DNA of 64,000 nt from Giardia intestinalis (GCA_000002435.2 CM018792.1); one strand, 5' to 3'; positions 1-34,462 are shown, counted from the first letter of the stretch. Numbers and translations: made by a program. The notes: a model not told the origin generated them from the sequence alone.

Positions 1-1
1 C

Positions 2-1660
2 ATACTGTGCCATGATGCCACGGGAGCGAATGAGAACAAGGGAGTGGCTAATTGCCTCAAGTGCACGGCACCAGCTAATAGTCCAGGGGCTGCCACGTGT
101 ACTGAGTGCATGTCTGGCTTCTCAGGAGACTCGTGTGCTACTCAATGCGGAGGAGACTGTGCCGCCTGTGATAAGAGTAACCAAAATCAGTGCACCTCTT
201 GTAAGACTGGGAAGTACCTGAAAGAGAATCAATGTGTGGAAAAAAGTGCATGTAACAACAATCACTACCCCGATGACACTAGCATGACCTGCGTCGCCTG
301 TAGCACCATACAAGATTGCACAGCATGCACAATGGACCAGTCCACGGGGAAGCCAAAGTGCACTAACTGCGGTGCCAGTAAGATCCCCAGGACGACTCTC
401 GACGGAACCTCGACCTGCGTGACAAAAGGGTATGATCAGTGTCAAGGCACAGATAAGGAGCTGTTCATGAAGGAGGACCAATCGGCGTGCTTATTATGCG
501 GAGACAATACTGAGGATACATCTGAGTCCAATAAAAACCAGGGAACTCCTAATTGCAAGACCTGTACCAAGACAGCATCCACTAAACCGGTCTGTGAGAC
601 GTGCAAGGATGGCTTCTTCTTTAATACTGGTGATAAGACATGTACAAACAAGTGCGATGCCACCTGCAAGACGTGCTCTGCTGCTACAGATGCTAACCGA
701 TGCTTAACTTGTATGCCCGGATACTTCCCCATCGATAGTACAGATCAACAAGGGAAGAAGTGCGTCCCATGCGATAGTGTGGACGACAAGGGTCGCGAAG
801 GGTGCAGTGTCTGCTCTAACACTGGTGGATTCAAGTGTACTGAATGTAAGGTGAACTATAAGAAGCAGTCCAATGGAGATGCAGGGGATGACTATACATG
901 TGTGAAGACCTGCGAGGATGAGACTGCCTGCGGGGGTACTTCTGGGGCTTGCGATGCAATAGTGATTGATGCTAATGGAAAGGAGCTTCACTATTGTTCT
1001 TATTGTGGAGAAGCTAATACGTATCCTATAGATGGGAAGTGTAATAGTGCTAAAGCAAATAATCAATGTGATCAAGGTGTATGTACACAATGCACCAACA
1101 ATTACTTCCTGTATATGAATGGTTGTTACAAGGTTAATACAGAACCAGGTAGCCTCATGTGCAAGACATCAAGTAAGGAGGGTGTCTGTACAGAAGCAGC
1201 CAACAATAAGTACTTCCTGGTCCCAGGGGCATCCAACACTGATCAATCCGTGCTAGCTTGTAGTAATCCTCTAGGCACACTAATAGGCACTGATAGTACC
1301 GCTAAGGCATACGTGGGAGTATATGGCTGCTCCCAGTGTACAGCCCCAGTAGCTCCATCTGAGACTGGTATGACCCCCGCTGTCTGTACCTCCTGTGACA
1401 GTGATAAGAAGCCCAACAGGGATGGCACTGGGTGTGTGCTGTGCTCTGACACCAACTGCAAGAGCTGTGTGGTGGACGGTGTGTGTGGGGAGTGCAGTGA
1501 TGGGTACAGTCTAGAGGGTGGCAAGTGCGTGTCCACTGGCGCCAACAGGGGCGGGCTCTCCACGGGGGCCATCGCGGGGATCTCCGTCGCTGTGGTCGTC
1601 GTCGTGGGGGGCCTCGTGGGCTTCCTCTGCTGGTGGTTCGTGTGCAGGGGGAAGGCGTAG
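2..1660 (+). CDS. Variant-specific surface protein (VSP), 5' end outside window
   Basis: The frame is open from nt 2 and the first listed M is at 44. The protein is full of CXXC motifs (e.g. CTxC). Its C-terminal TM plus tail ...GGLVGFLCWWFVCRGKA* is diagnostic of Giardia VSPs. There is no signal peptide because the 5' end is cut by the window edge. Confidence 0.9.
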   Translation: MLCHDATGANENKGVANCLKCTAPANSPGAATCTECMSGFSGDSCATQCGGDCAACDKSNQNQCTSCKTGKYLKENQCVEKSACNNNHYPDDTSMTCVACSTIQDCTACTMDQSTGKPKCTNCGASKIPRTTLDGTSTCVTKGYDQCQGTDKELFMKEDQSACLLCGDNTEDTSESNKNQGTPNCKTCTKTASTKPVCETCKDGFFFNTGDKTCTNKCDATCKTCSAATDANRCLTCMPGYFPIDSTDQQGKKCVPCDSVDDKGREGCSVCSNTGGFKCTECKVNYKKQSNGDAGDDYTCVKTCEDETACGGTSGACDAIVIDANGKELHYCSYCGEANTYPIDGKCNSAKANNQCDQGVCTQCTNNYFLYMNGCYKVNTEPGSLMCKTSSKEGVCTEAANNKYFLVPGASNTDQSVLACSNPLGTLIGTDSTAKAYVGVYGCSQCTAPVAPSETGMTPAVCTSCDSDKKPNRDGTGCVLCSDTNCKSCVVDGVCGECSDGYSLEGGKCVSTGANRGGLSTGAIAGISVAVVVVVGGLVGFLCWWFVCRGKA

Positions 1661-1677
1661 GTACTTAGGTAGTGAAT
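1540..1677 (+). repeat. Direct repeat copy 1: VSP 3' coding end plus 3' motif, roughly 90% identical to 3440-3580
   Basis: The strings gggggccatcgcggg...ctccgt...ggcttcctctgctggtggtt...gtacttaggtagt are shared with the second copy. Confidence 0.6.
1661..1677 (+). promoter_or_regulatory. VSP-type extended polyadenylation signal GTACTTAGGTAGTGAAT (AGTGAAT = AGTRAAY)
   Basis: It lies directly after the TAG stop at 1658-1660. A near-identical motif follows the second VSP at 3564-3580. Confidence 0.6.
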
Positions 1678-1721
1678 GCTATACAATGGGTGATAGTGTG
1701 ATGATAGTATGATAGTGGAGT

Positions 1722-3563
1722 GTGATATGCACAGCAGCCAAGGATGGAGTATGCACTGCTTGTAATACAGATAGTCAGTACATATTCCAGAACAAGGCAG
1801 ACAAGGTGACCCCTGGTAATGAGTGCATCCTGTGCTCTGATACTAAGGGAGCAGATGGATATACGGGAGTGGCCAACTGCGCCACATGTACAGCGCCAGC
1901 TAGTAGTACAGGACCTGCCACGTGTACAGAGTGCCAAGCAGGGTTCGTTAAGAAGGGTGATGCATGTGAGAAGTGTGATCCGTCCTGTCTGACCTGTGAG
2001 ACATCGGCGGCCCAGTGCACATCGTGTCCAGAGGGGAAGTACCTCAATGGGAATCAATGTGCTGATAACTGTGGTAATGATAAGTATGCTGATCCAGAGT
2101 CGGGAACGTGCAAGGCATGTAGTACAATAACTGATTGCACAGAATGCTCCTTTGACGAAGCTAAGGGGAAGCCGAAGTGCACAGCCTGCGGTAGTCAGAA
2201 GATCCCCAGGACGGCCCTCGACGGGACCTCGACCTGCGTCGATAAAACGCTTGAAGGATGCAAGGGCACTGACAAGGAGCTGTTCATAAAGGAGGACCAA
2301 TCGGCGTGCTTATTATGCGGAGATACTACAGGAACTAACAACGATAAGGGGATTGCTAATTGTAAGACATGCACTAAAACACAAGCTAACGCCGCACCTG
2401 TCTGTGAGACGTGCAAGGAGGGATACATTAAGAAGGGAGCTGATGCGGCCGCCACGTGTGAGGCTTGTCATCAGAACTGTGCCACATGTTCTGAAGCTAC
2501 GACAGAAAATAAGTGCCTGACCTGCAAGGAGGGGTTCTTCCTGGCCGGCACCGGCGAAGGAAAGTGCATCTCGTGCAAAGACGGGGCAGAAGGATCGTAC
2601 AAGGGAGTCCCTGGATGCGCTCGCTGCGACGCCCCGTCTGCTGCTGGACCAGCTGTGTGCAAAGCCTGTGACCACGGGTACTCTTTACAGGGAACAACGT
2701 GTGTGAAGACTTGTGAGGACCCCACGGCTTGTGGCGGGACAGCTGGAGCCTGCGATGCTATAGTAATCGACAATGATGGAGTAGAGCATCATTACTGTTC
2801 CTATTGTGGAGAGAGTGGTAAGTATCCTATCGATGGTCTCTGTGTTGATTCAAATGGAAAGCAAGGAAATACTTGTAACAACCATGTCTGTGAGTCTTGT
2901 ACTACGGGGTACTTCCTATACATGAACGGCTGCTATGATGTGTCGAAGGCTCCTGGCAACCTCATGTGCAAGACAGCAGCCAACGGGGTCTGTACTACTC
3001 CCAATGCCAACAATAGATACTTCATAGTACCAGAGGCACAGGCTACTGATCAGTCCGTGCTAGCCTGTGGCAACCCATTAGGCACATTGATAGGTACTGA
3101 TAGTACCGCTAAGGCATACGTGGGAGTGGATGGCTGCTCCCAGTGTAAAGCGCCAACACAGCTAGACACTCCTGGTATGGCTGCTGCTGTGTGTACCTCT
3201 TGTGACAGTAGTAAGAAGCCCAACAAGGACGGCAGTGGGTGCTTCACATGTGCCGTTAGTGGATGCTCGCACTGCAACAGAGACAACATGTGCGAGGCAT
3301 GTAGTAGTGGTAAGAAGGTGAGCCCTGGGAGGAAGTCATGCGTGGATGGCTGTCCCAGCAACTCCACTGACACCGACTCTGTCTGTGTGTGCAGTGATGG
3401 ATACAGCCCTGATGATGCTGGGACCTCCTGTGTGTCCTCTGGCGCCAACAGGAGCGGGCTCTCCACGGGGGCCATCGCGGGCATCTCCGTGGCTGTCATC
3501 GCTGTCGTGGGGGGCCTCGTCGGCTTCCTCTGCTGGTGGTTCCTCTGCCGGGGGAAGGCATAA
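1722..3563 (+). CDS. VSP paralog, 5'-truncated (no ATG, no signal peptide); possible pseudogene or recombination cassette
   Basis: The 613-aa CXXC-rich ORF ends ...GGLVGFLCWWFLCRGKA*. The frame opens only at 1716, after an in-frame TAG at 1713-1715. The ORF-track start is a GTG, and there is no in-frame ATG for hundreds of codons. It shares long blocks with VSP1 (IPRTxLDGTSTCV, KELFxKEDQSACLLCGD, TCEDxTACGGTxGACDAIVID, YFLYMNGCY, TDQSVLACxNPLGTLIGTDSTAKAYVGV). Confidence 0.75.
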   Translation: MICTAAKDGVCTACNTDSQYIFQNKADKVTPGNECILCSDTKGADGYTGVANCATCTAPASSTGPATCTECQAGFVKKGDACEKCDPSCLTCETSAAQCTSCPEGKYLNGNQCADNCGNDKYADPESGTCKACSTITDCTECSFDEAKGKPKCTACGSQKIPRTALDGTSTCVDKTLEGCKGTDKELFIKEDQSACLLCGDTTGTNNDKGIANCKTCTKTQANAAPVCETCKEGYIKKGADAAATCEACHQNCATCSEATTENKCLTCKEGFFLAGTGEGKCISCKDGAEGSYKGVPGCARCDAPSAAGPAVCKACDHGYSLQGTTCVKTCEDPTACGGTAGACDAIVIDNDGVEHHYCSYCGESGKYPIDGLCVDSNGKQGNTCNNHVCESCTTGYFLYMNGCYDVSKAPGNLMCKTAANGVCTTPNANNRYFIVPEAQATDQSVLACGNPLGTLIGTDSTAKAYVGVDGCSQCKAPTQLDTPGMAAAVCTSCDSSKKPNKDGSGCFTCAVSGCSHCNRDNMCEACSSGKKVSPGRKSCVDGCPSNSTDTDSVCVCSDGYSPDDAGTSCVSSGANRSGLSTGAIAGISVAVIAVVGGLVGFLCWWFLCRGKA

Positions 3564-3580
3564 GTACTTAGGTAGTAAAT
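3440..3580 (+). repeat. Direct repeat copy 2 (VSP 3' end plus GTACTTAGGTAGTAAAT poly(A) motif)
   Basis: See copy 1. The TAA stop is at 3561-3563 and the motif at 3564-3580. Confidence 0.6.
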
Positions 3581-3767
3581 GCGTCACTAGTGGTGCAGCT
3601 GCCTGACAAGCGGGTATGCCTCATATACTTCACCAGCCAGCCTGCAACTGGGAGCAGGGGTGGCCGCTCCCCTGCCCCCGAGCGTGCTCTGCACAGCGCC
3701 GTTGACACCGTCATGGCCGGGGACGGTGCACTCGATATTCCGTGTTCGCTCTTGACGAGCTGCATCG

Positions 3768-4260
3768 ATGCGAGGAGGGGTGCTTGATGTGGGCAGTTTT
3801 GGTACTGTCCATGCGATAGGTAGCTATCCAAGACTCAGAGTAGGAAGCTCACGGAGGCCACTGAAGTTGCGCTGGCCACCATTTCCAGACGCTCACACCC
3901 AGGCGTCATTAGGCACTACCGGATGCTCAGAGACGCTCACTCCATCGTCATCGTCATGGACCGCTGGGATCGGTGCCTCAAGATGTGATTGCCGATTGTG
4001 CAAGAACCGGTAACCCTACCGATACAGTGCTCTCCATCATGGAGCAGATCGCCATCATCCTCGCCTACCTTCACGACCCCGACAAGGTCGATGCCAGTAG
4101 AGATGGCAGGCTCAGCTCTTGCGGACTTCGGGCTCTGAAGGATGTCCTGCACAATGGGAGTGCCATTTTGGGAACCAAGCATACATGGCCCCCAAGACCC
4201 ACCTCAGGGGCGAGGCCGGCCCTACGTCAGACGTCGAGTCTTCGGTGCTATTGCCTATGA
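3768..4260 (+). pseudogene. Possible degenerate, frameshifted protein-kinase (NEK-like) remnant
   Basis: The frame from 3768 has LDVGSFGTVHAIGS, which resembles the kinase glycine loop (compare IGSGSFGKVHKV in the NEK at 52002). A different frame (3973..4260) has IAIILAYLHDPDKVDASRDGRL...SCGLRAL...ILGTKHTW, reminiscent of subdomains VI-VIII, but the HRD/DFG residues are degenerate. The pieces are split across frames. Confidence 0.25.
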
Positions 4261-4990
4261 GCTCTTCACTTTCAAATGCCTGATCTCCTGGGAGCAGCAC
4301 CCGAGGAATGTCTTCGTTAATGGGTGGAAGCTCAGACTGAGTGCAGTTGAAGATGAGTTCACAAGAGCCTCGAGAAAGTGCTCACCAGACTATTCTAGGC
4401 ATTCAGTTCCTCTGCTAGTAGATGTAGTACTCGAGACGTGGACCGGGAATACAGGTCACTCGATTGCACCTTGTATAGTACCAGTCATGAGGCTGACCCT
4501 CCTAAACACTGGTTTATCAGTAATAAAGAGCAAGCCTTCCAGGAACCTACACCGAGCAATCCCACACTCACAAAGGCTCTCTCACAAGCATGGCTCTAGC
4601 TGCTAGAAGTTGCGTTATCAGACTTTCTAACTCTAGAGCTCGTCAAGCTATAGGTAGTTAGAATTCATTGGGGTTAAGGAGCAAACCATTAAAAGCAACA
4701 AAGTGATTGAGCTCTACTAACAGTTCACCAGCTCAGAGGGAGGTTAGATGGGTGTAGAGCATTAGGGAGGCTAATCGATAAAGAGCTCATTCGGAAATGA
4801 ACACCTGGCAAAGGACGTTACATACCAACTGGCCCGTAGTCGTTGAGAACAGTGGCGCTAACGTCTTAAGAGCGAAAAGTAAATCTTCTACAAATGTACA
4901 TGCTGGCATTCATTAGCTGTGTCCAATGAATAATTAATAAATGACAAATCAACTTGTAATGATTCTAAATCAATTGTCCCTCAAAAACAA

Positions 4991-5548
4991 ATGCACCATC
5001 CGACGATCTACTGGGCGCAACGCAAGGACGTTGTCTACATGAGGCTCTCTGTATCCTCTGCCACAGACGTGAAGTTCAAGATCGCCGAGGAAACGATTCA
5101 CTTTGCTTGCAAGAGTGGTGGGAATGACTATGCCTGCAAGCTCACTCTTTTTGCACCGATCAATCCGGACGAGTCCAAATATAAAGTGACTGGCCCCTGC
5201 ATAGAGTCGATTCTTCAGAAGAAAGAGGCGAGCGATGAGTTTTGGACTAGTTTGACAAAGACCAAGCTGCCTTACGTGCGCATCGATTGGGACCGCTGGG
5301 TCGACGAGGGCGAGGACGAGAACACCGCAGGGGCGCTCCCCAACCCCAACGACATGGATTTTGCTAGTATGATGAAGAACATGGGCGGTGGAATGCCCGG
5401 CCTGGACGGGATGAACTTCGATCCCAGCAACTTCAAGATGCCGGAGGGTGCCGACTTCGGAGATGAGGAGGACGACGACAACAAAGACGAAGAGGACGGG
5501 CCCGACGAGGAGAAGAAGGAGTCTGGCGAAGAGAAGGCAGAGGAGTAA
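4991..5548 (+). CDS. HSP90 co-chaperone p23 / CS-domain protein (Sba1-like)
   Basis: The N-terminus WAQRKDVVYMRLSV...VKFKI...IHFACKSGGNDYACKLTLFAPINPDESKYKVTGPCIESILQKKE...W matches the p23 CS-domain pattern, and the C-terminal tail is acidic DE-rich. The ATG at 4991 has AT-rich upstream sequence. Confidence 0.8.
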   Translation: MHHPTIYWAQRKDVVYMRLSVSSATDVKFKIAEETIHFACKSGGNDYACKLTLFAPINPDESKYKVTGPCIESILQKKEASDEFWTSLTKTKLPYVRIDWDRWVDEGEDENTAGALPNPNDMDFASMMKNMGGGMPGLDGMNFDPSNFKMPEGADFGDEEDDDNKDEEDGPDEEKKESGEEKAEE

Positions 5549-5568
5549 ATGCCTGGCAATTATTTACT
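5544..5568. promoter_or_regulatory. Shared convergent poly(A) signals: AGTAAAT (+, overlapping the p23 TAA) and AGTAAAT (-, complement of 5562-5568, 17 nt after the RPL10 stop)
   Basis: gagTAAatgcctggcaattATTTACTtg is a near-palindromic pair of AGTRAAY elements in the 36-nt intergenic region. Confidence 0.5.
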
Positions 5569-5584
5569 TGTGCTTGGGACCCGA

Positions 5585-6217
5585 TCAGAGCTTCAAGTTG
5601 AGGGGCCCCTTCCTTGAGATCCTGTGGGCGTTATTCCCGTCATACTGGAGCTCTCCCCTCTCCCTCAAGTCCTCATACTCCTCCTTCGTGAACTCTGTGA
5701 AGCCCCAGTTCCTGGACTCGACGATGGCCTGGCGACCCGGGATCTTGAACTTGGCACGCCTGAGCGCATCCTTTACATAGTCCTTGGCGCTGGCCCTGCA
5801 CCTAACCGAGAGCAGAGGCTGGCCGATGGAGACTCGCGCAACAGTGCCTTGGGGCTTCCCCCACGCTCCACGCATCCCCGTCTGCAAGCGATCGGCGCCA
5901 GCGCACGAGAGCATCTTGTTGATGCGGATCACGTGGAACGGGTGGACACGAATGCGGAGGTGGAACGAATCTTTCCCTGCCTTCTTTGCGATGTACTTGT
6001 TGCAGGCAATACGACACGCCTCCAAAGCTTCCGAGGAGACCTGCTCCTTCTCTCCTGAAAGAAGGTGGAAGCAGTACGGGAAGTCGTTAACCTTCGCCCT
6101 GCGGTTTCCGAGGTCAAAGTATCGGATTTTTGGGTCAGGAACCCCACGGCAGAAGCGCGACTTGGGGTACGGCTTGTTCTTCTGATAGCGGTAGCAACGT
6201 GCTGGTCTGCGTCCCAT
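5585..6217 (-). CDS. RPL10: 60S ribosomal protein L10 (uL16/QM)
   Basis: [37 protein letters not shown]...[38 protein letters not shown] is near-identical to eukaryotic RPL10. Confidence 0.95.
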
Positions 6218-6301
6218 CTCGGGGGAGTCTTATAAACTCGTATGAAAGTGAATTTAAATTTGTTTACAATTCTTGGAGAGGTGTCGAACAGATGAAGATA
6301 G

Positions 6302-6556
6302 ATGAACATGCTAGAGAGGAATGGCACCATACTTTTTTCCGAGATTGACGATCGCTTAACTAGTCAGCAAATTCGGGAGGCCCTGTTTGTCGCGTGCAGT
6401 AGTTTTGGCCCTGTTCTCCGTGTCTCGTCGAACCGTAAAGCTCTTCGTGGCAAGGCATTTGTCGTCTTTCTTTGCTTTCCAGACGCCGTGGCCTGTGCCG
6501 CACGGCTCCATGGCACTTCGTTCTTGTCAGCCTCTCTCAATGCACAAATAGTCTAG
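6302..6556 (+). CDS. Single-RRM protein resembling the U1A/U2B'' snRNP N-terminal RRM
   Basis: TILFSEI...IREALFVACSSFGPVLRVS...ALRGKAFVVF...AVACAARLHGTSF parallels U1A TIYINNL...[30 protein letters not shown]...ALRSMQGFPF. The protein is only 84 aa. Confidence 0.65.
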   Translation: MNMLERNGTILFSEIDDRLTSQQIREALFVACSSFGPVLRVSSNRKALRGKAFVVFLCFPDAVACAARLHGTSFLSASLNAQIV

Positions 6557-6566
6557 CATTACCGGA

Positions 6567-7073
6567 TTATGTTTCGTTGCTTTTGAGTATTGCTGCTGCA
6601 TATGCTACGCCAAGCAGTCCGGCTGCACCATATGTGATCATTGTGAAGGTAATAATATAATATACCTTCCCGCCATGGAAATCTAGCAAGATAAAGTCCC
6701 AGATAAGGCCTAGACAGATGGGAATGACGACTGAACGGATGGACATGGTTGCCAAGAATATCGTTAAGGGCTCTGGAGGCGTCGGAATCTCAAGCCTGCG
6801 CAAACACTGATTGGTTCTTTTCCTGGTGAAGTATGTTGTGATGGATATGACGACGGCGTTGAATAGAGAGACACCGATGATGACAATTAACGCTATAGGA
6901 ATGCTATATTTAATATACCCAGTCAACTCATTCTGCAGGAAGTTATTAGTTAGTCCGAAGTATGCCAATATGAACAGCGCATTGCTACTTAGGAGGTTAT
7001 CTAGTCTAGCTACTGTGATCAGCTCCTGGTGCTCAATCCTCTCTATCGTCCACTTTGCAGTGTGAATCTGCAT
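6567..7073 (-). CDS. Hypothetical multi-pass membrane protein
   Basis: The 168-aa ORF has an ATG at 7071-7073 and 4-5 hydrophobic segments. No recognised family. Confidence 0.55.
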   Translation of the reverse strand: MQIHTAKWTIERIEHQELITVARLDNLLSSNALFILAYFGLTNNFLQNELTGYIKYSIPIALIVIIGVSLFNAVVISITTYFTRKRTNQCLRRLEIPTPPEPLTIFLATMSIRSVVIPICLGLIWDFILLDFHGGKVYYIITFTMITYGAAGLLGVAYAAAILKSNET

Positions 7074-7158
7074 TTTCCACCCCTAGACGCATCTACAGCG
7101 AAGGGCACCTGTTTACTTCTCCTTACCAACTGATCACTGTACAGCAACTTACAGTGCC

Positions 7159-7629
7159 TTACTCCACAATCTCCTCGTACACTTTGCACCACTCTTTCAT
7201 ACGCTCCAAGAAGGGAGCACTTGTAATAGCCTTCTTAGCTTCCCCGACAAGGTCAGGTGCGTATTTGGCTGGATCTGTTACTTTGAAGGTGAACTCCCAA
7301 TCTTCTGGCTCCGTGTCACAAAACGGCTCGAGGACAGCAGTTCCCTCCAGGGGATCTTTGTCTGCAGCCTTGTAGGTCACATTCATCTTAATCTTGAAGT
7401 CATAGGAAGATCTCAGCTTCCCCTTGCGCACATTCTTGAAGGCCTCACCTTTCGCCTCCGTAACAGACACATCAATGACTTCTGTCCCACTCAACGTGTG
7501 CTGGAACGTGAGTCGCTTCTTTATCTCTGTAATAGCCCAATCAGTAAAATCCTTCTCAGACCAATGCCACCCGTTGATGTTGTGAGCACTAGGACTAGCC
7601 ATCAATTTTCCTTTAATTGATCTTAGCAT
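7159..7629 (-). CDS. Aha1 N-terminal-domain protein (activator of Hsp90 ATPase, Hch1-like short form)
   Basis: NINGWHWSEKD matches the Aha1 signature NVNNWHWTERD, and EAFKNVRKGKLRSSYDFKIKMNV matches EASINNRKGKLIFFYEWSVKLNW. At 147-156 aa it has only the N-domain. An alternative ATG lies at 7602. Confidence 0.8.
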   Translation of the reverse strand: MLRSIKGKLMASPSAHNINGWHWSEKDFTDWAITEIKKRLTFQHTLSGTEVIDVSVTEAKGEAFKNVRKGKLRSSYDFKIKMNVTYKAADKDPLEGTAVLEPFCDTEPEDWEFTFKVTDPAKYAPDLVGEAKKAITSAPFLERMKEWCKVYEEIVE

Positions 7630-7720
7630 CCATCTAATGTTGTGCCAAATAAATTAAAATATGGAATGCTGAAAAGTTCCAAGATCTAAATTCCTAAGCC
7701 CGGGACCTAAATTCCAACCA

Positions 7721-8374
7721 ATGCCTTTTACAACGAAGAGTATCGTGCATGAGACAATGATGGCCCCCGGGGTCGAAAACCGCCAGCATGCCTTCGGCGT
7801 GTTCATGGACACATTCAATGCGATGAGGAACTACTTTTTGGAGCACTATGAGAAGGGCATAGGGATGTTCATTCCTAGCCTTGGTGCCTTTTTCTTTGAT
7901 AACATCCACGACGCTAGAACAGACCGCCCAGCCAGAATCCCCCGCTTCGTATTTCTTTCACATTTTCTCACCCGATCGGGGTTGCAGTGTCCCAAAGATC
8001 AGAACGCAGACACGCTCAATCTCAACATGGGTAGCCTCTTTGAAACAAAGGGTCCGATGCATCGTATAAACTGGACAACTGTGGCCGGAAAGGCAGGCCT
8101 CACCCCTGCAGATTGCAAGGAAGCGTGGGACCTCTTATTGAAGACTCTACAAAGTAATATCCTTTCCGGGGTAGATGGCTCTATAGATTTCGGCATTGGA
8201 ACCTTTACAACAACCAATTTCAGAGGGGGTATGAAGCTTAAGAAGTGGGTGCAAGCAGACCTTTGCAACAATGGAACCCTGGGCGTTGTTAAAACTAACC
8301 AGGCCATGACAACATTGGGGACATTCAGGGTTACTGAACAGCTTCCTCGTGGGACGACCATAATTCGCAAATAA
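7721..8374 (+). CDS. Hypothetical protein (217 aa)
   Basis: Clean ATG ORF with a protein-like composition. No family recognised. Confidence 0.5.
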   Translation: MPFTTKSIVHETMMAPGVENRQHAFGVFMDTFNAMRNYFLEHYEKGIGMFIPSLGAFFFDNIHDARTDRPARIPRFVFLSHFLTRSGLQCPKDQNADTLNLNMGSLFETKGPMHRINWTTVAGKAGLTPADCKEAWDLLLKTLQSNILSGVDGSIDFGIGTFTTTNFRGGMKLKKWVQADLCNNGTLGVVKTNQAMTTLGTFRVTEQLPRGTTIIRK

Positions 8375-8407
8375 CTCTGCTTGAAGGCGTGAAGAAGGAA
8401 ACGATCT

Positions 8408-9154
8408 TTATATGTTTGTAGATTGGGACTTAGATTGGGCTTTGGACCTTGACCGCTGCTTTTTTGTGCCATACATGCATTGCTTGATCTGGACAGCAGA
8501 CTCTTCGCAACTTCGTAACTCACCCAGGGTAAGCTTGTCCCATTGATCGAATGTTAACAAAATCTGCGCAAACTGATCTTTGAGACTTGTCTTGAGTTGG
8601 GTGATTAAATGTCGCTGAATAAACTGGCGAATGATGTTGGATTCTTTGTTATAGATTATCTCTACTGTAGTGCATGACACATTTGATTCGGCTCCGCAGA
8701 TCCAGTCGTGGGGGATTTTGAGTGTAAGTTCGTCTCTTTGTCGCTTTCTCAAGCAATCTGCGGGTACATCAACGGTCTCCAAATGTTCATTGTCTAACCA
8801 ATTTGGCGCCGGCTCCCCACAATAGCAATCCTGAAAATGGAACCTCATTTCTACTGTGACCCGAGGGTTTCCATAAGGACTCCTTGCCACATAGATTGAA
8901 TAGGGAAACTCAGTAGTGGAATAAATCTTTGTCTTGATCCCTTGATACGCTAAAGGCAGATTGATGTACTCTGGAATATCCTTGAAATGGACCCGGCTTG
9001 CTGAGATTACTCCAGATTGACTTCCAGGCAGATGCTGAATTAGCAGAAGGCGCCTTTGATCCCCAGGAAAGCCTCTGGCTGTAACAAAGCGGAGCCCTAT
9101 ACTAGTTTGTAACGCAGTGAGGGGCATCAGAAAAGAAATGGCCTGTGTTTGCAT
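8408..9154 (-). CDS. Hypothetical protein (about 248 aa; ORF open to 9223 but the first ATG is at 9154)
   Basis: The track start at 9223 is TTG. The ATG at 9152-9154 is preceded by GGATTTTAAA (AT-rich initiator context). Confidence 0.5.
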   Translation of the reverse strand: MQTQAISFLMPLTALQTSIGLRFVTARGFPGDQRRLLLIQHLPGSQSGVISASRVHFKDIPEYINLPLAYQGIKTKIYSTTEFPYSIYVARSPYGNPRVTVEMRFHFQDCYCGEPAPNWLDNEHLETVDVPADCLRKRQRDELTLKIPHDWICGAESNVSCTTVEIIYNKESNIIRQFIQRHLITQLKTSLKDQFAQILLTFDQWDKLTLGELRSCEESAVQIKQCMYGTKKQRSRSKAQSKSQSTNI

Positions 9155-9291
9155 TTTAAAATCCTGACGTGAAATGTTACAGGGAAGGATTACCAATGGT
9201 TTACCAGAGAGATTGCGAACCAATACGCAGGGAAAGAGGATTGTAGAAAATAAAAAGTAAGCAACCCAATCTGGTTTGAGTCAAGCTAGGC

Positions 9292-9912
9292 TTATCTATT
9301 TCGTTTGTGCATGGTGGTAATTATTCCCATTTGTACACCGCTAGCCAAGACGACGAGGGCAATTTCGATGATGACAAATATCCATAAGCGACGGGAAACA
9401 GATTTGAGGCCGCCGATAAGCCTATTTTCTCTATACTTAGAATACCTCTGGTCAGCCTGAACATTGGACATAAGTTTGTGTGCTTGATCCACAGTTACCG
9501 TGTATCGATCAACCGACGCAGAGCTAGACGCTCTAGCCACATCTATTCCAAAGTCGCAAGTTGCTACCGTCTCCTTTATACTTGCAGCTCGCGGTTGTGC
9601 ACCAGTAGTATTGGTCTCAGGAGCTTCCTTTAAGATTACCTCAAAACAAAAATGGTACGTCCCTGGCTTTGTGACAGAGATAGCATAGGCTTCGCTGTCA
9701 GTGATGCTTGAGTATATAGGAGCCTTGATGCTGGGGGTGTTGATTGAAAACCGTACCTGGTAAAGGGCTGACGGATTGATGGCAACTCGCCCAGAGACTT
9801 CATCACCAGCAGCCAAGTTCTCGTGCATGCAGAACCGCTTCTTCGGCTTCAAAAAGAAGCTGAGTTCGTCGCAAAGCACCGAACTTATAACTGCAAATAT
9901 GGTTAAAATCAT
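9292..9912 (-). CDS. p24/emp24 (GOLD-domain) cargo receptor
   Basis: It has the signal peptide MILTIFAVISSVLC, the GOLD-like motif ...GTYHFCFE..., a coiled region, a single C-terminal TM (LWIFVIIEIALVVLASGV) and a short basic tail. Confidence 0.85.
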   Translation of the reverse strand: MILTIFAVISSVLCDELSFFLKPKKRFCMHENLAAGDEVSGRVAINPSALYQVRFSINTPSIKAPIYSSITDSEAYAISVTKPGTYHFCFEVILKEAPETNTTGAQPRAASIKETVATCDFGIDVARASSSASVDRYTVTVDQAHKLMSNVQADQRYSKYRENRLIGGLKSVSRRLWIFVIIEIALVVLASGVQMGIITTMHKRNR

Positions 9913-9946
9913 TGCTAAGATTTTTTTTCAGACTACGAATAAAGTG

Positions 9947-12900
9947 ATGCGATTCAGTGATCAGTTTCTTGCTCGGGTGGCTTCCCAGCTGGACCTGAAG
10001 CTCCTCTTTAGGTTCCAGGGCTTGTCACAAAGAACATACGAGGCCGGTTATCAAGTTACGGCACTCAACAATGTTGATCTGCATTATCCGGGGCTGAATA
10101 AGGTCTTGATAAAATACAGAAAGGTTCAGCAGGCATCGATAATAAGCCTCTACTCGGCTCCTGCTCGCCCCATTGGGGTCTTATTTTATCGATATTGGGT
10201 TGATCTCAAGTCTCTTTCGTTCACCTTTCAACGCTGCGACATCTTCGTTAACTTTATAAGTACTTCGCTGATTAAAGGAAAGGATGAGACGGAATCGGAG
10301 AAGAGCTTTCTGGCGTTAACAGACCTCAGCATTACTATCTACACTACAGGAGATTCCAAATACTGTTCGCCGCTAAGTGTCTTTCCTCCTGTGCATGCAG
10401 CAAAAATCAGAAGGCTGGTTTATGATTGCAAGTTTGAAACAAGAATTCCTACCGCCTTCAAGAACTTTACTGCGATTCAAGACCTTACCCTCTACGGACC
10501 AAGCGAGCCCAACTTTAGACTAATTAACATGCCAAGCCTTAGAAACTTAAGACACTTTATTGTTCATAAGGCGAACTTATATCCTGTTGAGATTCTTGCT
10601 ATCCTAAAGAGTAATCCAACAATAGAGATTCTTGAGATCTATGCTATTTCTCTGGACCCTCCCCAAGACGATGGCTTTTCCTTAGTGACAATTTGTTCGG
10701 ATTTAGAGCGGAAAGATGGTACTTTATGCGATGAACAAGACAGTCAATACAAACAAACCTTCCGGAAAAAGTACAGACTGAATCCGTACAAGACTGTCAC
10801 CAACCTGAAAAGCATTATGATAAGCACTGCATCCCAGGTCCCTCTCGACATCGTTACCCTTGTTACTGCGTGCAGTCCCCACTTGATCAAGTTGTCTATC
10901 AGCAATTCTGTCTTTATATCGCGTCACTTTATTAAAGAAACTCGCTTCCTAGACATTCTCAAAGAAAACTTCACGTGTCATAGCGTTCTATCTCTTGCAT
11001 GTACTACAGATAAGAAGCAGGAAGAGGAGGAAGAACGAGAACGCAGCAAGTGCCCAGCAGCTTTGCCTGCAGATAAAAATCGTTCTAAGCCTAAGTTACT
11101 ACAGCAAAATGATGTGCCACCGGATGCTGATTTGAGTGGAATCAAGCTCGTTACCCCAACAACAACAACAGCGTCACTATCATCTGGTCAGTCGTCTATG
11201 TATTCTGGTCTAAGCTCTAACACAGACATTGTTAAGCGTCCGCCCTTCTCGTCAACAATTAAGACATGCTGTCAAGATGCTCGGATGACAACTGATAGCA
11301 TGTCTACGCCTGAGCTGACATCCTCAGTAATATTTGAACAGAACGATATGTCTAAGGATGATTTAAAATCCACCTCTCTAAAGAGCTATCTTCCCTGCAT
11401 TGTTACTGACGCTCTCGCGCAGATTAAAACAGATTATCGAAATGATGCTGACCTTTCTTCGGAGGACACTATACCGCCTTCTCTCTTCAAGCATAACGTT
11501 GCAGACAGCTCTCTACCTAGTTTTCAAATTAGATACTCTGAGTCTCAGCCTCATCTGGTAACGTACTCTGCACCCTACTCTTCAATTTCTACTACAACAT
11601 ATGTCGACAACATCCCTGATTCTACATTCAGTTTTCAATCTTCTGTATACTCAATGAGTGCAATGCTCCACAACCCCAGCCTCACTATAGATGGATATCC
11701 CAGGAAATACTATGATAGCCATCTTGCCAGAAATAGAAGTAGACTATCATCAGCTACAAATGGTATTCAAAGTACTTACAATGATATTTACAATAGTGAC
11801 CAAGATAGCACCAGATCATATGTTCTAGTGAACGATGAGCCTTACAGCAGGTCTCCATCAGATGACTCTGACAACTCTGGTACAAATCAAGAACTAGATA
11901 GAGAGCAAGATTTGGACCTGGTCAGCTTTCATCATCCTCGAAACATTGTTTCCAACAAGAATGTATACTCCGGCGCTCTACCTCATCTGTCTAACAATTC
12001 TCATCAAATAACATGGAACTTCTATCCGTTTTTGAATCCTCAAGAACGGATGTTGTCTCACACCCAGAGTCCGTGGCATGCAGATGATCCTATTCATAAA
12101 AGATACCCGTTTGTTGGCCAGCTTTCCTCTCAGAAGAAGGAGCTCCCCTTTCTTAGCAAGCAGTTACAACCACCATATTACTTCAATGATCCTGCACTAG
12201 GTCACAGAACCTCTAATAAGGATGGGGATAGACACGGAGGAAAGTGCTCACAACGTCCAAACTCCGTAGGAAAGTGTTCCGGTACATCTGTAAGATTTTT
12301 CACGAAATGCCAAGACGCAACTGCCCATAAGCAACGGAGTAATGAAAGTAGCCAGCTCTCGCCGCTCAGGCCTGAATCGTGTGCTCGAAGAGCGAGGATG
12401 CACATGCGCGTATATAGTTCAATGAATGATTACAGTGGCTACGGAGTATTTACTACTTCTAGTACACGTACAGACGCATCACTAAATAATTCTGATACTG
12501 CCTCTGTCAGATCAGTGCAGTCAGGTACTCATTTGGATGCCAGTTCAGACGAGAAAGCCAGCTCGTTACCTCCAGCTAACCTAGATACTAATTTTTCCTG
12601 TAGTGCTTCATTGCCTAGCTACAAAAAGACCTGTACTATTCCATTACAGACTGAAGAAGAGCCTCTGAACAACCTAGGAAAGAACTTACTTGATGGCATT
12701 CCAAACAACCCGCTGCTGATAGCAACTGCCAAGGAATCGCCTCACGCAAACACAGCTCCGTCACCTCCTGTTAATTCACTGAGCTTGGAGCAACCATATC
12801 AGCCCTTGCAGATAAATCTATCAAAAACTACCAACGCTTCAGACTCCAGCTTTGAGAAATATGTGACGATGGTAACAGGCGTTTCTGCGAAGAAAAATAA

Positions 12901-15733
12901 GCTCTCTAGTCTTAGTCAGACCTTGAGCCTTTTCGGTGGCTCTTTGCCTGAGGACCTCGAGAGTAATGCTACCGCAAAACTGATACCAGGAAATACTCAG
13001 AATGCTCAAGAGCAGCAAACTACAGAAGGCCAGATAGACGAGGGTTTTAAGCCATATGCCTCGACAACAGATCTAACTTCTCGAGAAACGTCCATGATAA
13101 TACCTCATAATCCAGGACTAACCAATACTTCTACATTCTCTGTGACTAGGAATATCAATTCCTTGTTGCAGAATATGTGCATTCCTCAAGACAGTGAAGA
13201 GGACCTAGATGATGCTGAGGAGGTAATGCCACAACTACTAGTATCACACCTTAGAGCCATTTCCACTCCTATAGTACATCTTCACGAATTTGAACAATCA
13301 ACCCGCAACGCGCTGATTTCGGAACGAGTCCATAATACAAAGTGTTTTACCAGTCACGACGATGCTTGGTCATACATTGGCAAGTGCATGGAGTGGACTG
13401 AAGAAGATAAGATAATAGCAGGGGGCTTCTACCAACAAACTGCCTGGAAAAATGCTGCATTTATGTGTCAGCGGTACGAGAAAACATATATGGACATGGC
13501 CCGCAGTGCGGGGGTGCTAGATGGCAGCACAGATGAGGCCAGCTTCCAACCTATCATCAAGTGGCTTCATCAAGGTATAAGGTTAAAGGGACCAAAGCAG
13601 CTGAAGACAGCATATTTATGGTCCAACTACCATATGTTATCACCAATATACGACGATTGCAAGTTCACCATCAGAGATATGCAGAATGAGCTCTTTCAAG
13701 CCAAGATGAACTCACAGCTCGCTGCTATTGAGCCTTTCTTTAACACCAATATCTCGGGAAAGCCATTTTATCAGACGAAAACGGCTAATACGGGATATGT
13801 AGAGAAGATTATTCTTACGAGCAATAAGCTGCGGGCGTCCATGACCGTTGTTGCTAACGCCTCTGTCAGTACAAAGGAGCGAGGAGTGGATGCCCAAGGC
13901 GAGAAGGCAATTGCAGGTCTAAGCTTGACCTCATTATCCGGTTCTTCACAAAGCATAACGGCACCAGCTATCTCAGATAAGCAAGCAAACGAGAAAATCA
14001 AGTCGATACCTGAAAGCGAAAGCACTAAGCCCTCTAAAAAGAATTCTAGCGGATCTAGAAATGAGCAGTCAATAGGGGCCAGTAAGCTTTCGAGCCTGTT
14101 GGCCGTCATAAGAAATTACAATAAAACAGCGGGTGTGTCACCGAAAGCCGCTAAAACCCAAGCTAAGAATCCGACTCTCATTGACAGCTCTAATCCAGAT
14201 CTGATTCAGGAATCAAGCAATACAAAAACAAATCCATCAGCATCTTCTTCAACTGGCAACTTGGATCAAAGCAAAGAAAATAGAAAAGTATCGGAGCAGC
14301 AAAATACGTCGCAGCTTTTGGACATATTCCGTAAAGACATACAGCTTATCGATTTACACGAAGTTCATGATGTATATAGTCTACCATTTAATAAAAATTT
14401 AGTTGCCGAGCCAGATAAGATGCTCTACTTCGACATGAGGATAAACCCTTGTGTCGATCAAATAATAGGACAAATAATAACACATGACATGCTAGAGCAG
14501 GACAAGAAGGAGCATGTGCAAAAGGTCGGGGATTCCTTCGATGGATTCAGCCAGACCAAGAACAATACCTTATTTTGCAACATTCTGCTTATTTCGACTC
14601 TTTCTAGATGCATTACAAGGATACATATGCCGTCAATCCATTTGTCGGTAGATGATATAATATTAATGGCTACTAGGTTTAAAAACCTGAGATCGTTAGA
14701 GATAGGATCACTGCCCACTCCAACATCTGACTTCCGGGACGCTCTTTCCGTTAGGGACACAACAGACGACGGCCTTGAGCAGAGACCTCGTGCAAAGAGC
14801 GACGGAGGTGCACCAGCCTTAGATGGGGCCCAAAACTCCTCAGTTGAAGCGACAATGGGCTTTATGGTACCAGCATCCTTTTCTAGAACAATCATATCCT
14901 TTCCAAGCATGACAGAACTTTTCCTTCGCAACGGCTACATGGTTGATATTCTTCTTATTCTTCAGCTATTTCCTAATCTCAAGTGCCTCCAGCTTGAAAA
15001 CTGCATTCTCTTGAACACCGTTACAAATGAAATGGCCTTTTGCTCTACCAACGAATTTCGCAAGCAATTTGTTTTAGAAGAACTAACTGTCATTGGCAGT
15101 TTGAAGACAGATCGTATGACTCTCCGCAATATAATGCTGCTGTTACGCGATACTCTTACAACTGTCTATTTGAACAGGACGAGAATACCATTGCATAATA
15201 TCTGGAGAAACAATGTAGTGTATATGCCCAGACTGCGGCATGTAACCCTGCAGTCAGCCATCTACGATGAGACTACTGAGATGGACGAGTACATAGCACG
15301 TTATCCAAAGATGGCCAACTATGGGCGCTGTAGCCTATCGTTGCTCGACCTTTTAGCAGTTATAGCCTGCTATCCTAATTTGGAGACTCTGTCCTTCTCA
15401 CAGCTCCACACGTTTGACTACGGTGGAGTGCATGAGGCTGTTAGTAGCGCTATAATACTACGAATACTCGACCATCTTTCCGAAGCAGATGGCACTTACT
15501 GTCTAAAGCGTCTGAGAACACTGTCACTTAGGGGCGCTTCAGAAGGCGATGTTGACGTGTTTATATTGACAATGGCTAAGATCTGTGACATGAAGAGTCT
15601 GACACGTGTGTCGCTAGAGCTTTTGTTCTGGAATGGCGACATTTTGAAACCAGCTAGTCTCCAGGAATCAAAGCTTTTCTCAGATGGTTGCTCTATTTCT
15701 ATAGTGTTAGATCAGACTAAGGAAACGCAGTGA
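9947..15733 (+). CDS. Large Ser/Thr-rich hypothetical protein with leucine-rich-repeat-like N- and C-terminal regions (about 1929 aa)
   Basis: The ORF is open from a TTG at 9776. I took the ATG at 9947 because the ATG at 9899 would overlap the divergent p24 start at 9912. LRR-like strings include LKCLQLENC, LRHVTLQS, LETLSFSQ, LRTLSLRG and LTRVSLE. The central part is a long low-complexity S/T/N-rich region. Confidence 0.7.
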   Translation: MRFSDQFLARVASQLDLKLLFRFQGLSQRTYEAGYQVTALNNVDLHYPGLNKVLIKYRKVQQASIISLYSAPARPIGVLFYRYWVDLKSLSFTFQRCDIFVNFISTSLIKGKDETESEKSFLALTDLSITIYTTGDSKYCSPLSVFPPVHAAKIRRLVYDCKFETRIPTAFKNFTAIQDLTLYGPSEPNFRLINMPSLRNLRHFIVHKANLYPVEILAILKSNPTIEILEIYAISLDPPQDDGFSLVTICSDLERKDGTLCDEQDSQYKQTFRKKYRLNPYKTVTNLKSIMISTASQVPLDIVTLVTACSPHLIKLSISNSVFISRHFIKETRFLDILKENFTCHSVLSLACTTDKKQEEEEERERSKCPAALPADKNRSKPKLLQQNDVPPDADLSGIKLVTPTTTTASLSSGQSSMYSGLSSNTDIVKRPPFSSTIKTCCQDARMTTDSMSTPELTSSVIFEQNDMSKDDLKSTSLKSYLPCIVTDALAQIKTDYRNDADLSSEDTIPPSLFKHNVADSSLPSFQIRYSESQPHLVTYSAPYSSISTTTYVDNIPDSTFSFQSSVYSMSAMLHNPSLTIDGYPRKYYDSHLARNRSRLSSATNGIQSTYNDIYNSDQDSTRSYVLVNDEPYSRSPSDDSDNSGTNQELDREQDLDLVSFHHPRNIVSNKNVYSGALPHLSNNSHQITWNFYPFLNPQERMLSHTQSPWHADDPIHKRYPFVGQLSSQKKELPFLSKQLQPPYYFNDPALGHRTSNKDGDRHGGKCSQRPNSVGKCSGTSVRFFTKCQDATAHKQRSNESSQLSPLRPESCARRARMHMRVYSSMNDYSGYGVFTTSSTRTDASLNNSDTASVRSVQSGTHLDASSDEKASSLPPANLDTNFSCSASLPSYKKTCTIPLQTEEEPLNNLGKNLLDGIPNNPLLIATAKESPHANTAPSPPVNSLSLEQPYQPLQINLSKTTNASDSSFEKYVTMVTGVSAKKNKLSSLSQTLSLFGGSLPEDLESNATAKLIPGNTQNAQEQQTTEGQIDEGFKPYASTTDLTSRETSMIIPHNPGLTNTSTFSVTRNINSLLQNMCIPQDSEEDLDDAEEVMPQLLVSHLRAISTPIVHLHEFEQSTRNALISERVHNTKCFTSHDDAWSYIGKCMEWTEEDKIIAGGFYQQTAWKNAAFMCQRYEKTYMDMARSAGVLDGSTDEASFQPIIKWLHQGIRLKGPKQLKTAYLWSNYHMLSPIYDDCKFTIRDMQNELFQAKMNSQLAAIEPFFNTNISGKPFYQTKTANTGYVEKIILTSNKLRASMTVVANASVSTKERGVDAQGEKAIAGLSLTSLSGSSQSITAPAISDKQANEKIKSIPESESTKPSKKNSSGSRNEQSIGASKLSSLLAVIRNYNKTAGVSPKAAKTQAKNPTLIDSSNPDLIQESSNTKTNPSASSSTGNLDQSKENRKVSEQQNTSQLLDIFRKDIQLIDLHEVHDVYSLPFNKNLVAEPDKMLYFDMRINPCVDQIIGQIITHDMLEQDKKEHVQKVGDSFDGFSQTKNNTLFCNILLISTLSRCITRIHMPSIHLSVDDIILMATRFKNLRSLEIGSLPTPTSDFRDALSVRDTTDDGLEQRPRAKSDGGAPALDGAQNSSVEATMGFMVPASFSRTIISFPSMTELFLRNGYMVDILLILQLFPNLKCLQLENCILLNTVTNEMAFCSTNEFRKQFVLEELTVIGSLKTDRMTLRNIMLLLRDTLTTVYLNRTRIPLHNIWRNNVVYMPRLRHVTLQSAIYDETTEMDEYIARYPKMANYGRCSLSLLDLLAVIACYPNLETLSFSQLHTFDYGGVHEAVSSAIILRILDHLSEADGTYCLKRLRTLSLRGASEGDVDVFILTMAKICDMKSLTRVSLELLFWNGDILKPASLQESKLFSDGCSISIVLDQTKETQ

Positions 15734-15816
15734 GGTATAAAGTAAATGGCCGCTGAGGCCCAAAGCCAGACGGAAGGGGTGGCCGAAAGAGCAAGCTACT
15801 ACAAAAAATAAAAACG

Positions 15817-32300: not shown

Positions 32301-32581
32301 GCCGTAGGCGGTATCGCCTTGCTCCAGTCAAAGCGTGTAGCATGCATATAAAACCCCGGCTCTATTATGATTGACGGCTTCGAGTATGTATCTATTAGTG
32401 TCTGATTCTTTGTTTGGCACTGATCAATGACTGTAGTGGATGCATGAAACCGAAGAAGATAGGTGGTCTTGGAGAGATTTGTAACAGAATTAAGGCGTGT
32501 ATTAACCAGAATAGCCGAAAGCTCTTTAGCCAAAACAGCTACATCAAAGGATGACGGGGTAAGTTTACGCGAGACAGACAT
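29390..32581 (-). CDS. NEMF: NEMF / Rqc2 / Tae2 (ribosome quality control complex subunit, NFACT family)
   Basis: The NFACT-R signature is WFEKFHWFFSTDGYLVLSGRDAQSNELLVKKFMSSNDIFVHSEAHGAACTIVKA. It also has an NFACT-N-like N-terminus, a coiled-coil basic middle and a C-terminal CCLCGILGHNKNTC zinc knuckle. Confidence 0.9.
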   Translation of the reverse strand: MSVSRKLTPSSFDVAVLAKELSAILVNTRLNSVTNLSKTTYLLRFHASTTVIDQCQTKNQTLIDTYSKPSIIIEPGFYMHATRFDWSKAIPPTAFSNRLRTEICNMICTGVSQFYFDRVIILEFSRYNSDLKRYLIVELYGRGNLILTDEAYKVLVTQSKMPGQHVGGNYFSMHGDDRVILMDIEKLCTLDHFRQIIAKASKQKGQNASFRAALAKDFFLGGSASAIVLRAVNCKTSIKAKAVQEDEQLVIKLWKVCEGVLKCLIEAAKSSFDSLLSKGYIYFYREDELAIVDTGEGDLDDTIMTAIRVAEYHIFDIRSIYQEGALYRAEDIREYESYNKTLDEYNSFLVTARAYQNRAQLIQKAKSTIAHAQDTTEDRMASLLNSATQKRLLAECILWKATEIDYLTKQMEFLFKTGRITWNDVIAWMNCGSTDIPLLEAISSIDVVRKLVSFNISIFASDIHNMCYTDCTPFLALSKFRATEKQGILDLEASNETEDNNEQQVCGSCGDTKIVSDPTEPIVISVDVPFKGAAGTTAHIIAKTLFEAAKAAEEKCKRTLGHSSAYFDKVEKKATADIDSVMKETDAELIALQHQRSPLWFEKFHWFFSTDGYLVLSGRDAQSNELLVKKFMSSNDIFVHSEAHGAACTIVKAPRLTTTDIPQQNTVLRWVPPVQTMLEAGAFTVIHSKMWAQKVGTQSYWVYADQVSKTAPAGMYIGTGSFVIRGKRNFIPQQPLELGVALLWRYDTANVMDPASEAPPPWQVAYSDKNESIICTTEDAGQTVDESGKLLVLSTQKQKSQVTTAEQVLKDSNKDERKRLQKERQAKIRVQKQQAKIKRLISEGRLEEAESYKKMISAQRGEDSQDDTGDEGSICSSDFCCLCGILGHNKNTCTTSSMSKDYKTLFDAHISPVLATMWKSVASIPPFTYTTGDTVIHSGEVLLEEDQDGFQKHIDKGNGEQNVTSLSVSAMISTKRPAEGELPGLVVMIAPYSVVERFFGVIRIIPGDITKGKTHRLVQKMLLDDKGLELSRYEQLCIKQIPEHAIVLGIPGSMNVQSCKTKK

Positions 32582-32842: not shown

Positions 32843-32875
32843 TGCCATCAGCGGGTCCTGCTCGCGGCCGCAGAC

Positions 32876-34450: not shown

Positions 34451-34462
34451 TTTAAGGAGGGC

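Follow-up and report, generated by a model that had tools for sequence, protein, structure and literature searches.

The stretch of Giardia intestinalis DNA analysed here (assemblage A; 64,000 nucleotides of CM018792.1, assembly GCA_000002435.2, hereafter called the window) begins with two sequences for variant-specific surface proteins (VSP), designated VSP1 and VSP2. Positions 1-3580 very probably represent the end of a vsp linear array, arranged head to tail, on chromosome 4 of isolate WB (NC_051859.1), namely its last two units, both of them silent pseudo-VSPs (pVSPs). VSP2 is most likely a 5'-truncated VSP without start codon or signal peptide, i.e. a pseudogene inside a tandem array. That both copies are start-less pseudogenes is not new as such, since the locus kind is already annotated and published: it was described in 2010, re-annotated in the chromosome-scale reference of 2020 and tabulated gene by gene in 2022, with VSP2 under its own identifier. 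A preliminary description of the sequence had proposed a head-to-tail pair of this type, with a polyadenylation motif on each copy and with VSP2 as a truncated copy, possibly a pseudogene, that opens at 1716 right after a TAG, and in these respects it holds; its view of VSP1, of the likeness between the copies and of the origin of the truncation had to be revised.

The plus strand of 1-3600 contains two long cysteine-rich open frames in the same orientation, and both match the Pfam family of Giardia variant-specific surface proteins (PF03302), VSP1 with an E value of 5e-28 and VSP2 with 9e-41. With 74 Cys residues (12%) and 26 CXXC motifs, VSP2 has the Cys-rich ectodomain with multiple CXXC motifs of functional VSPs; the clipped VSP1 frame contains 66 Cys residues and 22 CXXC motifs. 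Both also share with functional VSPs a transmembrane segment and CRGKA tail at the C-terminus, which reads ...FLCWWFVCRGKA in VSP1 (also given as AIAGISVAVIAVVGGLVGFLCWWFLCRGKA and GLVGFLCWWFVCRGKA), followed by TAG, and ...FLCWWFLCRGKA in VSP2 (also given as AIAGISVAVVVVVGGLVGFLCWWFVCRGKA and GLVGFLCWWFLCRGKA), followed by TAA. Directly after each stop codon, at 1661 and 3564, lies an exact copy of the poly(A) motif GTACTTAGGTAGTRAAT (extended signal ACTTAGRTAGTRAAYRY). These are the only two exact copies in the 64 kb, in which about 0.21 matches would be expected by chance even with 3 mismatches permitted. The motif ACUUAGRUAGURAAYRY is reported to be specific to VSPs and pVSPs (bioRxiv 10.1101/2022.03.07.483299). 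From the end of the VSP1 stop codon to the open frame of VSP2 there are 55 nt (1661-1715), and stop codons occur in all three frames across 1658-1715. The length of 61 nt previously given for the gap runs to the GTG at 1722. More than half of the WB vsp genes are located in linear arrays, with spacers of 60 bp on average that range from overlapping to 241 bp (PMC2996952). Rfam searches gave no match in 1-5000, and self-comparison of 1-5000 with the remainder of the window yielded no further DNA copies.

What VSP2 lacks is the 5' part of a functional gene. Its frame opens directly after TGA TAG (1710-1715), the first in-frame ATG is found at 2922, corresponding to residue 403, and no signal peptide follows this ATG. 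The N-terminus, WSVICTAAKDG.., has no hydrophobic leader. The initiator PyAATGTT (YAATGTT), which surrounds the start codon of ca. 72% of the non-array vsp genes, is absent from both strands of 1-3700. In this sense the spacer indeed lacks an initiator, as had been noted, but it is not devoid of ATG triplets: these occur at 1676, 1686, 1701 and 1709, and each reaches a stop within 3-18 codons. The ATG at 1686 shares the frame of VSP2 but yields only MGDSVMIV before the TGA TAG. Alignment with the full-length VSPs P0001 (720 amino acids), P0007 (689 amino acids) and VSP4A1 (P0017) places residue 2 of VSP2 at residue ~106 of the complete proteins, with WSVICT as the counterpart of GSEICT or WSEICT. 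Missing are ~104 N-terminal residues, which in complete VSPs hold the signal peptide together with the first Cys module, as far as ...FLFMGGCYK.... Because the unit is without initiator, ATG and signal peptide, VSP2 and, by extension, VSP1 cannot make a surface protein. This agrees with the survey of Adam et al., in which none of the downstream array members has the PyAatgTT initiator and some have no ATG (PMC2996952). A different type of loss may be present in another isolate (contig L018, 9950-10010), where a VSP retains the signal-peptide coding region (..FLLIPLFAVSTIAVTCQ) and has no ATG at the position where isolate DH has CTAATGTTCCAACTGATACC; here the start codon may have been lost from an otherwise full-length VSP.

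The first 24 residues and the first 31 nt of VSP2 match one entry of Table S7, GL50803_0015206 (10.1101/2022.03.07.483299). This entry is listed as a pVSP on NC_051859.1 that begins with tggagtgtgatatgcacagcagccaaggatgg..., has a length of 1848 nt and is marked N both for open reading frame and for inner stop codons. The length is exactly that of 1716-3563, and the poly(A) string given for the gene in Table S6 is TACTTAGGTAGTAAATGCGT. GL50803_0015206 is classed as a pVSP by the reference annotation and by two papers, and the same structure is present in the PacBio chromosome-scale reference. For VSP1, the comparison with Table S7 covered the first 400 residues of the entry: a pVSP of 1770 nt that starts with WSVICTAASDGVCTAC (WSVICTAASDG) and is likewise marked as without inner stops has at residues 38-400 the same sequence as VSP1 at residues 1-363. 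The pVSP GL50803_0050182 (NC_051859.1) opens with TGGAGTGTGATATG, and its poly(A) string TACTTAGGTAGTGAATGCTA is the sequence at 1662-1681 of the window; judged from these matches, VSP1 is probably GL50803_0050182. A 1770-nt unit ending at 1660 would start 110 nt to the left of the window, and VSP1 therefore is truncated at the same junction as VSP2. It follows that the pair consists of two pVSPs. The preliminary description, which had paired a complete VSP with a truncated copy, was correct about VSP2 only. Taken together, the features of pVSP array members are all found here: a short spacer, a conserved 3' end in combination with the lack of initiator, ATG and signal peptide, a junction and spacer common to other array members, listing as pVSP, and no sense mRNA in the published samples.

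The point at which VSP2 opens is the standard boundary of an array unit. In Table S7, at least 69 pseudogenes start with tggagtgtgatatg and at least 61 with tggagtgagatatg, so that together at least 130 start with TGGAGTG[T/A]GATATG. At least 13 further entries start with atgctgtacagtgatagtgatagt (ATGCTGTACAGTGATAGT), the long form that keeps ..LLFMGGCYK... Complete junctions of the same kind are present in two unrelated metagenome contigs, L017 (ERZ27316335) and L020 (ERZ28595607), the latter with three successive units. In these contigs ...CRGKA and the stop codon are followed by ACTCAGGTAGTGAATGCT(A/G)TACAATGTGTGATAATGGGTGATAGAAGGTGATAGAGG and then by GTGATATGCACAGCAGCC..., the corresponding junction in the window being ...GTAGTGAATGCTATACAATGGGTGATAGTGTGATGATAGTATGATAGTGGAGTGTGATATGCACAGCAGCC. 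The alignment of the window with both contigs spans the poly(A) signal, GCTATACAATG.GTGATA.. and GTGATATGCACAGCAGCC. Among the old gene models of WB, those opening with MLYSDSDSAMWCGGDS..LLFMGGCYK (MLYSDSDS..; P0004, P0009 and P0024) or with MIVLCGVLCSVGDSDSVGLLFMGGCYK (MIV..; P0003) appear, from their sequences, to translate a spacer of this type. Apparently these models start at the ATG inside the poly(A) signal that precedes, AGTGAATGC, and are back in the VSP body ~16 codons earlier. The starts of the old models and of the Table S7 entries therefore point to two junction forms, a short one (TGGAGTG.GATATG, as in VSP2) and a long one. Because the junction recurs in pseudogenes and contigs, with VSP1 included, the truncation of VSP2 must be older than the pair and have been inherited with the repeat unit. 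The spacer motif CAATGGG in the window (CAATGTG in L017 and L020) was compared with PyAATGTT as a possible relic of a vsp start, using the true start in L019 (CTAATGTTCCAACTGATACC) and the starts of Table S1 as the comparison set, and the likeness is too short to score. On the right side, array homology ends just past the poly(A) signal of VSP2, at AATGCGTCAC, which makes VSP2 the last array unit. The string that Table S6 gives behind this poly(A) signal, AGTAAATGCGT, is also listed for another pVSP of chromosome 4, GL50803_0050180, and the flank of VSP2 may thus be duplicated elsewhere.

Comparison of the two units with each other showed less similarity than the long identical peptide blocks and near-identical 3' end of ~140 nt that had been reported for them. 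Nucleotide alignment gave ~70% DNA identity, and the proteins are 62% identical. The only exact block of at least 14 residues that was found is NPLGTLIGTDSTAKAYVGV, of 19 amino acids. The two units are no closer to each other than either is to many database VSPs, the best match of each also being ~60-63% identical. Their 3' ends show 87-89% identity over 137-160 nt, and this is a region conserved family-wide; a conserved 3' terminus of 117 nt has been described throughout the vsp family (PMC2996952). The frame of VSP2 contains no stop in 615 codons, versus 18 and 64 stops in the other two forward frames and a mean of 28 (minimum 13) in shuffled sequences. Cys positions are common to VSP1 and VSP2 in 64 of the 67 aligned cases, while the other positions are 57% identical.

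Transcription data agree with a silent locus. In Table S9, which reports strand-specific RNA sequencing of WB clones from cultured trophozoites only and counts unique mappers only, the sense signal of GL50803_0015206 is 0 transcripts per million in 7 of 7 samples, and the antisense values are 113, 127, 105, 99, 139, 144 and 96 (10.1101/2022.03.07.483299). Most silent VSPs are reported there to have more antisense than sense reads, and the pattern of VSP2 is therefore typical of silent VSP loci. As to the source of the antisense RNA, it would be only a guess to name transcription that runs on from the L10 gene on the minus strand or that starts at a bidirectional promoter near 4990.

The end of the array is organised differently in isolate DH, which belongs to sub-assemblage A2. 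Contig AHGT01000014 of this isolate is 98% identical to the window from 3061 onward, and homology starts only at this position. Upstream of it, DH carries genes of the ankyrin, NEK-kinase and ankyrin/RING types that the window does not contain, and nothing on the DH contig corresponds to VSP1 or to most of VSP2. At the position matching 3061 (7877-8177 of AHGT01000014, our L001) an ankyrin/RING-finger gene runs into the VSP tail, so that its last codons (..ISLW) and stop are VSP sequence. Either A1 and A2 truly differ in structure at this break, or the 454 contig is chimeric. Between the tail of VSP2 and its positional counterpart in DH, synonymous divergence (dS) is 0.41; this value and the ankyrin/RING fusion at 3061 contradict the idea that the DH fragment is a simple ortholog. 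Past the VSP tail, the next ~700 nt are ~85-95% identical to DH, and windows at ~4300-5000 are 96-100% identical. Since the dS of the tail is high compared to the identity nearby, the array end must turn over much faster than its surroundings.

According to these observations, the body of an array unit opens at a fixed internal point, TGGAGTG[T/A]GATATG, which in complete VSPs lies near residue 105, just past the GGCY motif. The unit continues with the transmembrane segment, the CRGKA tail, the stop codon and the extended poly(A) signal, and a GATAGT-rich spacer of ~40-55 nt with stops in all frames follows. The array may have grown by tandem duplication, i.e. unequal crossing-over, of an already truncated unit, and gene conversion may continue to move segments between its units and other VSP genes. 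Segmental conversion would explain the intact frame, the Cys scaffold and the mosaic sequence, and the fast turnover relative to DH would fit it as well. A donor role of array units in recombination is plausible and has already been proposed in the literature; the mosaic blocks, the dS of 0.41 to the DH counterpart within a neighbourhood that is otherwise 96-100% identical, and the intact frame would be indirect signs of it.

Several points weigh against this reading or narrow it. One unit of the three-unit pVSP array in L020 has an in-frame TGA (1690-1700; GGCTGTTGACAGTGT, at a site where L017 has GGCTGTTCGCAGTGT), which means that array units do decay. VSP1 owes its gene assignment to the poly(A) string and to 363 identical residues, and there are several near-identical copies. 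Neither tandem duplication nor gene conversion was observed; both were deduced from patterns. Since dS between VSP1 and VSP2 is saturated at 1.2, their ratio of nonsynonymous to synonymous divergence (dN/dS) of 0.27 is for the most part a record of divergence that preceded the array or took place outside it. The mosaic character of VSP2 was scored at the protein level with a mixed database: exact blocks of at least 14 amino acids that are also present in database VSPs account for 441 of its 615 residues, the partner differs at nearly every block, and no single database protein is more than 62% identical. Some of the blocks are family-wide motifs rather than traces of recent exchange. Likewise, the expression values are confined to uniquely mapped reads and to one cultured life stage, the trophozoite.

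A possibility that deserves real weight, even though we lean away from it, is that array members are inert, decaying leftovers, their intact frames being due to recent duplication of functional genes. Adam et al. proposed that downstream members are not expressed and are either a reservoir or what is left of vsp genes that were discarded (PMC2996952), and the second option is supported by the in-frame TGA in L020, by the lack of sense transcription and by the fact that in DH most of the unit is gone with no evident effect. However, VSP1 and VSP2 differ at ~30% of their nucleotides (dS ~1.2) and yet have kept open frames and nearly all Cys positions. Neutral decay should give many stops, as in the shuffled sequences, whereas Table S7 lists both entries without inner stops. 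The open frames imply either that the divergence arose in functional ancestors or that conversion from functional genes repairs the units. A more far-reaching version of the donor role, which we consider unlikely, is that the spacer with the poly(A) signal and the 3' block of ~120-140 nt serve as homology boxes, which would turn each pVSP into a portable cassette, similar to trypanosome VSGs with their 70-bp repeats and conserved 3' ends, and that donor selection via conversion keeps the frames open. If this were true, Giardia would diversify its antigens at the DNA level from silent arrays, besides epigenetic switching. In a weaker variant the importance of the arrays would lie in the antisense RNA that they give, VSP2 showing antisense reads only.

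The remaining alternatives concern the origin and the integrity of VSP2. That it was once complete and lost its 5' end by deletion or unequal crossover at this locus alone, as had been suggested earlier, is quite improbable. The head-to-tail units and the short spacer would fit such an event, and the DH breakpoint at 3061, which is different and clearly local, indicates that local rearrangements occur, but the breakpoint in VSP2 is the one that opens at least 130 annotated WB pseudogenes, spacer and junction recur in L017 and L020, and VSP1 matches a pVSP with the same start. We give very little credence to VSP2 as an intact, expressible gene that acquires its start and signal peptide from an upstream exon, an alternative start or stop readthrough, although it does have 615 open codons, the Cys scaffold, a transmembrane segment, CRGKA and a poly(A) signal. 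The in-frame ATG at 1686 is cut off by the TGA TAG. The motifs GTATGA (1707) and CACAG (1730-1734), which we take to bear a loose likeness to Giardia splice sites, would define an intron of 28 nt (1707-1734), but its excision joins the ATG at 1686 out of frame and provides no hydrophobic leader, and the candidate is without the CTRAC branch motif of the Giardia 3' intron signal. The late position of the next in-frame ATG, the absence of PyAATGTT, the pVSP classification and the sense value of zero in all seven samples also argue against expression. The upstream exon, alternative start or full-length transcripts that the preliminary description had allowed for thus did not emerge from either the sequence or the published table. 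Equally hard to credit is that the tandem structure is an assembly artefact, such as a collapsed or chimeric VSP repeat join. VSP arrays are known to have broken contigs when WB was first assembled (PMC2996952), and short-read contigs from many isolates stop at or near 4289 and never cross the VSP region, but the PacBio reference has the same structure, independent contigs contain complete junctions of the same type, and VSP1 and VSP2, being ~30% different, are not collapsible repeats. We therefore retain the interpretation of 1-3580 as the last two pVSP units of an array, with the features compiled below.

Table 1. Features at the array end and in its right flank (positions in the window)
Feature	Start	End	Strand	Details
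VSP1, 3' 1660 nt of a VSP pseudogene, clipped by the left window edge	1	1660	+	Frame 2-1657, TAG 1658-1660; Pfam VSP
VSP1 conserved 3' block: GANRGGLSTG, transmembrane segment, CRGKA, stop	1538	1660	+	87-89% identity to VSP2 3' end
Extended VSP polyadenylation motif after VSP1, GTACTTAGGTAGTGAAT	1661	1677	+	Hexamer AGTGAA 1671-1676
Array spacer, GCTATACAATGGGTGATAGTGTGATGATAGTATGATAG	1678	1715	+	Imperfect GATAGT-type repeats; ends with TGA TAG in the VSP2 frame
VSP2, pVSP GL50803_0015206	1716	3563	+	615 open codons (1716-3560), TAA 3561-3563; starts at array junction TGGAGTGTGATATGCACAGCAGCC
VSP2 conserved 3' block: GANRSGLSTG, transmembrane segment, CRGKA, stop	3441	3563	+	
Extended VSP polyadenylation motif after VSP2, GTACTTAGGTAGTAAAT	3564	3580	+	Hexamer AGTAAA 3574-3579
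Frameshifted remnant of NEK-like kinase domain, outside the array	3851	4191	+	tblastn with DH kinase: two pieces in different frames, E 4e-12

To the right of the kinase remnant lies the first housekeeping gene, a CS-domain gene at 4991-5548, and to its left the last pVSP. Pfam searches of the separate open reading frames at 3768-4603 gave no match. The presence of the remnant fits published remarks that NEK and ankyrin genes and their remnants flank VSP loci. Slightly further downstream, contigs L002, L003, L006 and L010-L014 end at position 4289 of the window, and L009, L015 and L016 end nearby (4272, 4323). That short-read contigs of many sequencing runs end within ~35 nt of 4289 suggests a repeat boundary. 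From there on, contigs assembled from public Giardia sequencing runs match 4289-16217 with 100% identity, some of them over 6.7-11.9 kb.

Three other regions of the window are mentioned for completeness. An island of 4.2 kb at 32800-37000 has 70-81% G+C, compared to ~45% in its neighbourhood. On its minus strand there are collinear frames at 34463-36802 and 32876-34462 with one stop between them, and their G+C content is coding-like at the third (GC3 ~0.95) and second (GC2 ~0.55) codon positions. Long stop-free frames exist on both strands of the island as a side effect of composition. No Pfam match was obtained for the island, and no Rfam match in 32000-38000. The minus-strand frame at 55429-59451 encodes 1340 amino acids with 14% Cys and 71 CXXC motifs, matches Pfam VSP with an E value of 1.5e-71 and has a signal-peptide-like start; the scan of the window showed no CRGKA tail for it. 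Most likely this frame encodes a high-cysteine membrane protein (CRMP/HCMP). A plus-strand frame at 42273-43496 (407 amino acids, 9.8% Cys) has weak EGF-like Pfam matches.

The organisation of the array resembles that of silent antigen cassettes in other pathogens. The msp2 pseudogenes of Anaplasma and the vls cassettes of Borrelia are likewise 5'-truncated, promoterless, open in frame and arranged in tandem. Their role as donors is proven, segments being converted into one expression locus, and neither such a locus nor proof of donor function is known in Giardia. In Trypanosoma brucei, VSG cassettes are bounded by upstream 70-bp repeats and conserved 3' ends. The silent VSG arrays of this organism are large and composed of promoterless, often incomplete, mosaic cassettes; a remark in PMC7641422 also bears on this comparison. 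In T. brucei the demonstrated switching mechanism is the transfer of cassettes into an expression site through gene conversion. For Giardia, epigenetic or post-transcriptional switching is described, and an expression site is not (PMC2996952), and use of pVSPs at the DNA level has, unlike in T. brucei, only been proposed. Whether silent cassettes with intact frames feed sequence into expressed VSP genes is the question that the locus touches, and a single locus makes it no more testable than before.

A closer parallel is provided by the psiVSP arrays adjacent to the telomeres of Giardia muris, which are likewise in tandem, without signal peptide and not transcribed (Xu et al. 2020, PMC7641422). 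In that species, too, genes or remnants of NEK kinases, ankyrin proteins and zinc-finger proteins adjoin the VSP loci, and the arrays are said to recombine or undergo gene conversion with intact VSPs (PMC7641422). The G. muris arrays occur almost only at chromosome ends and have the tail GCRGK, whereas the tail of the WB array is CRGKA; in the window, housekeeping genes fill the remaining ~59 kb, so there is no chromosome end within that distance on that side. With the vsp linear arrays of G. intestinalis itself (Adam et al. 2010, PMC2996952; Xu et al. 2020, PMC7000408; Rodriguez-Walker et al. 2022, bioRxiv 10.1101/2022.03.07.483299) the locus shares all defining features, and there is no substantive difference. 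Three details are not stated in the passages of these three papers that were available, namely the conservation of spacer and junction across contigs, the existence of two junction forms, and the array end in DH, which, as the contigs stand, differs between sub-assemblages A1 and A2. The locus thus is a clean worked example of a pVSP unit, with a fixed 5' junction, a stop-filled spacer and a conserved 3' block.

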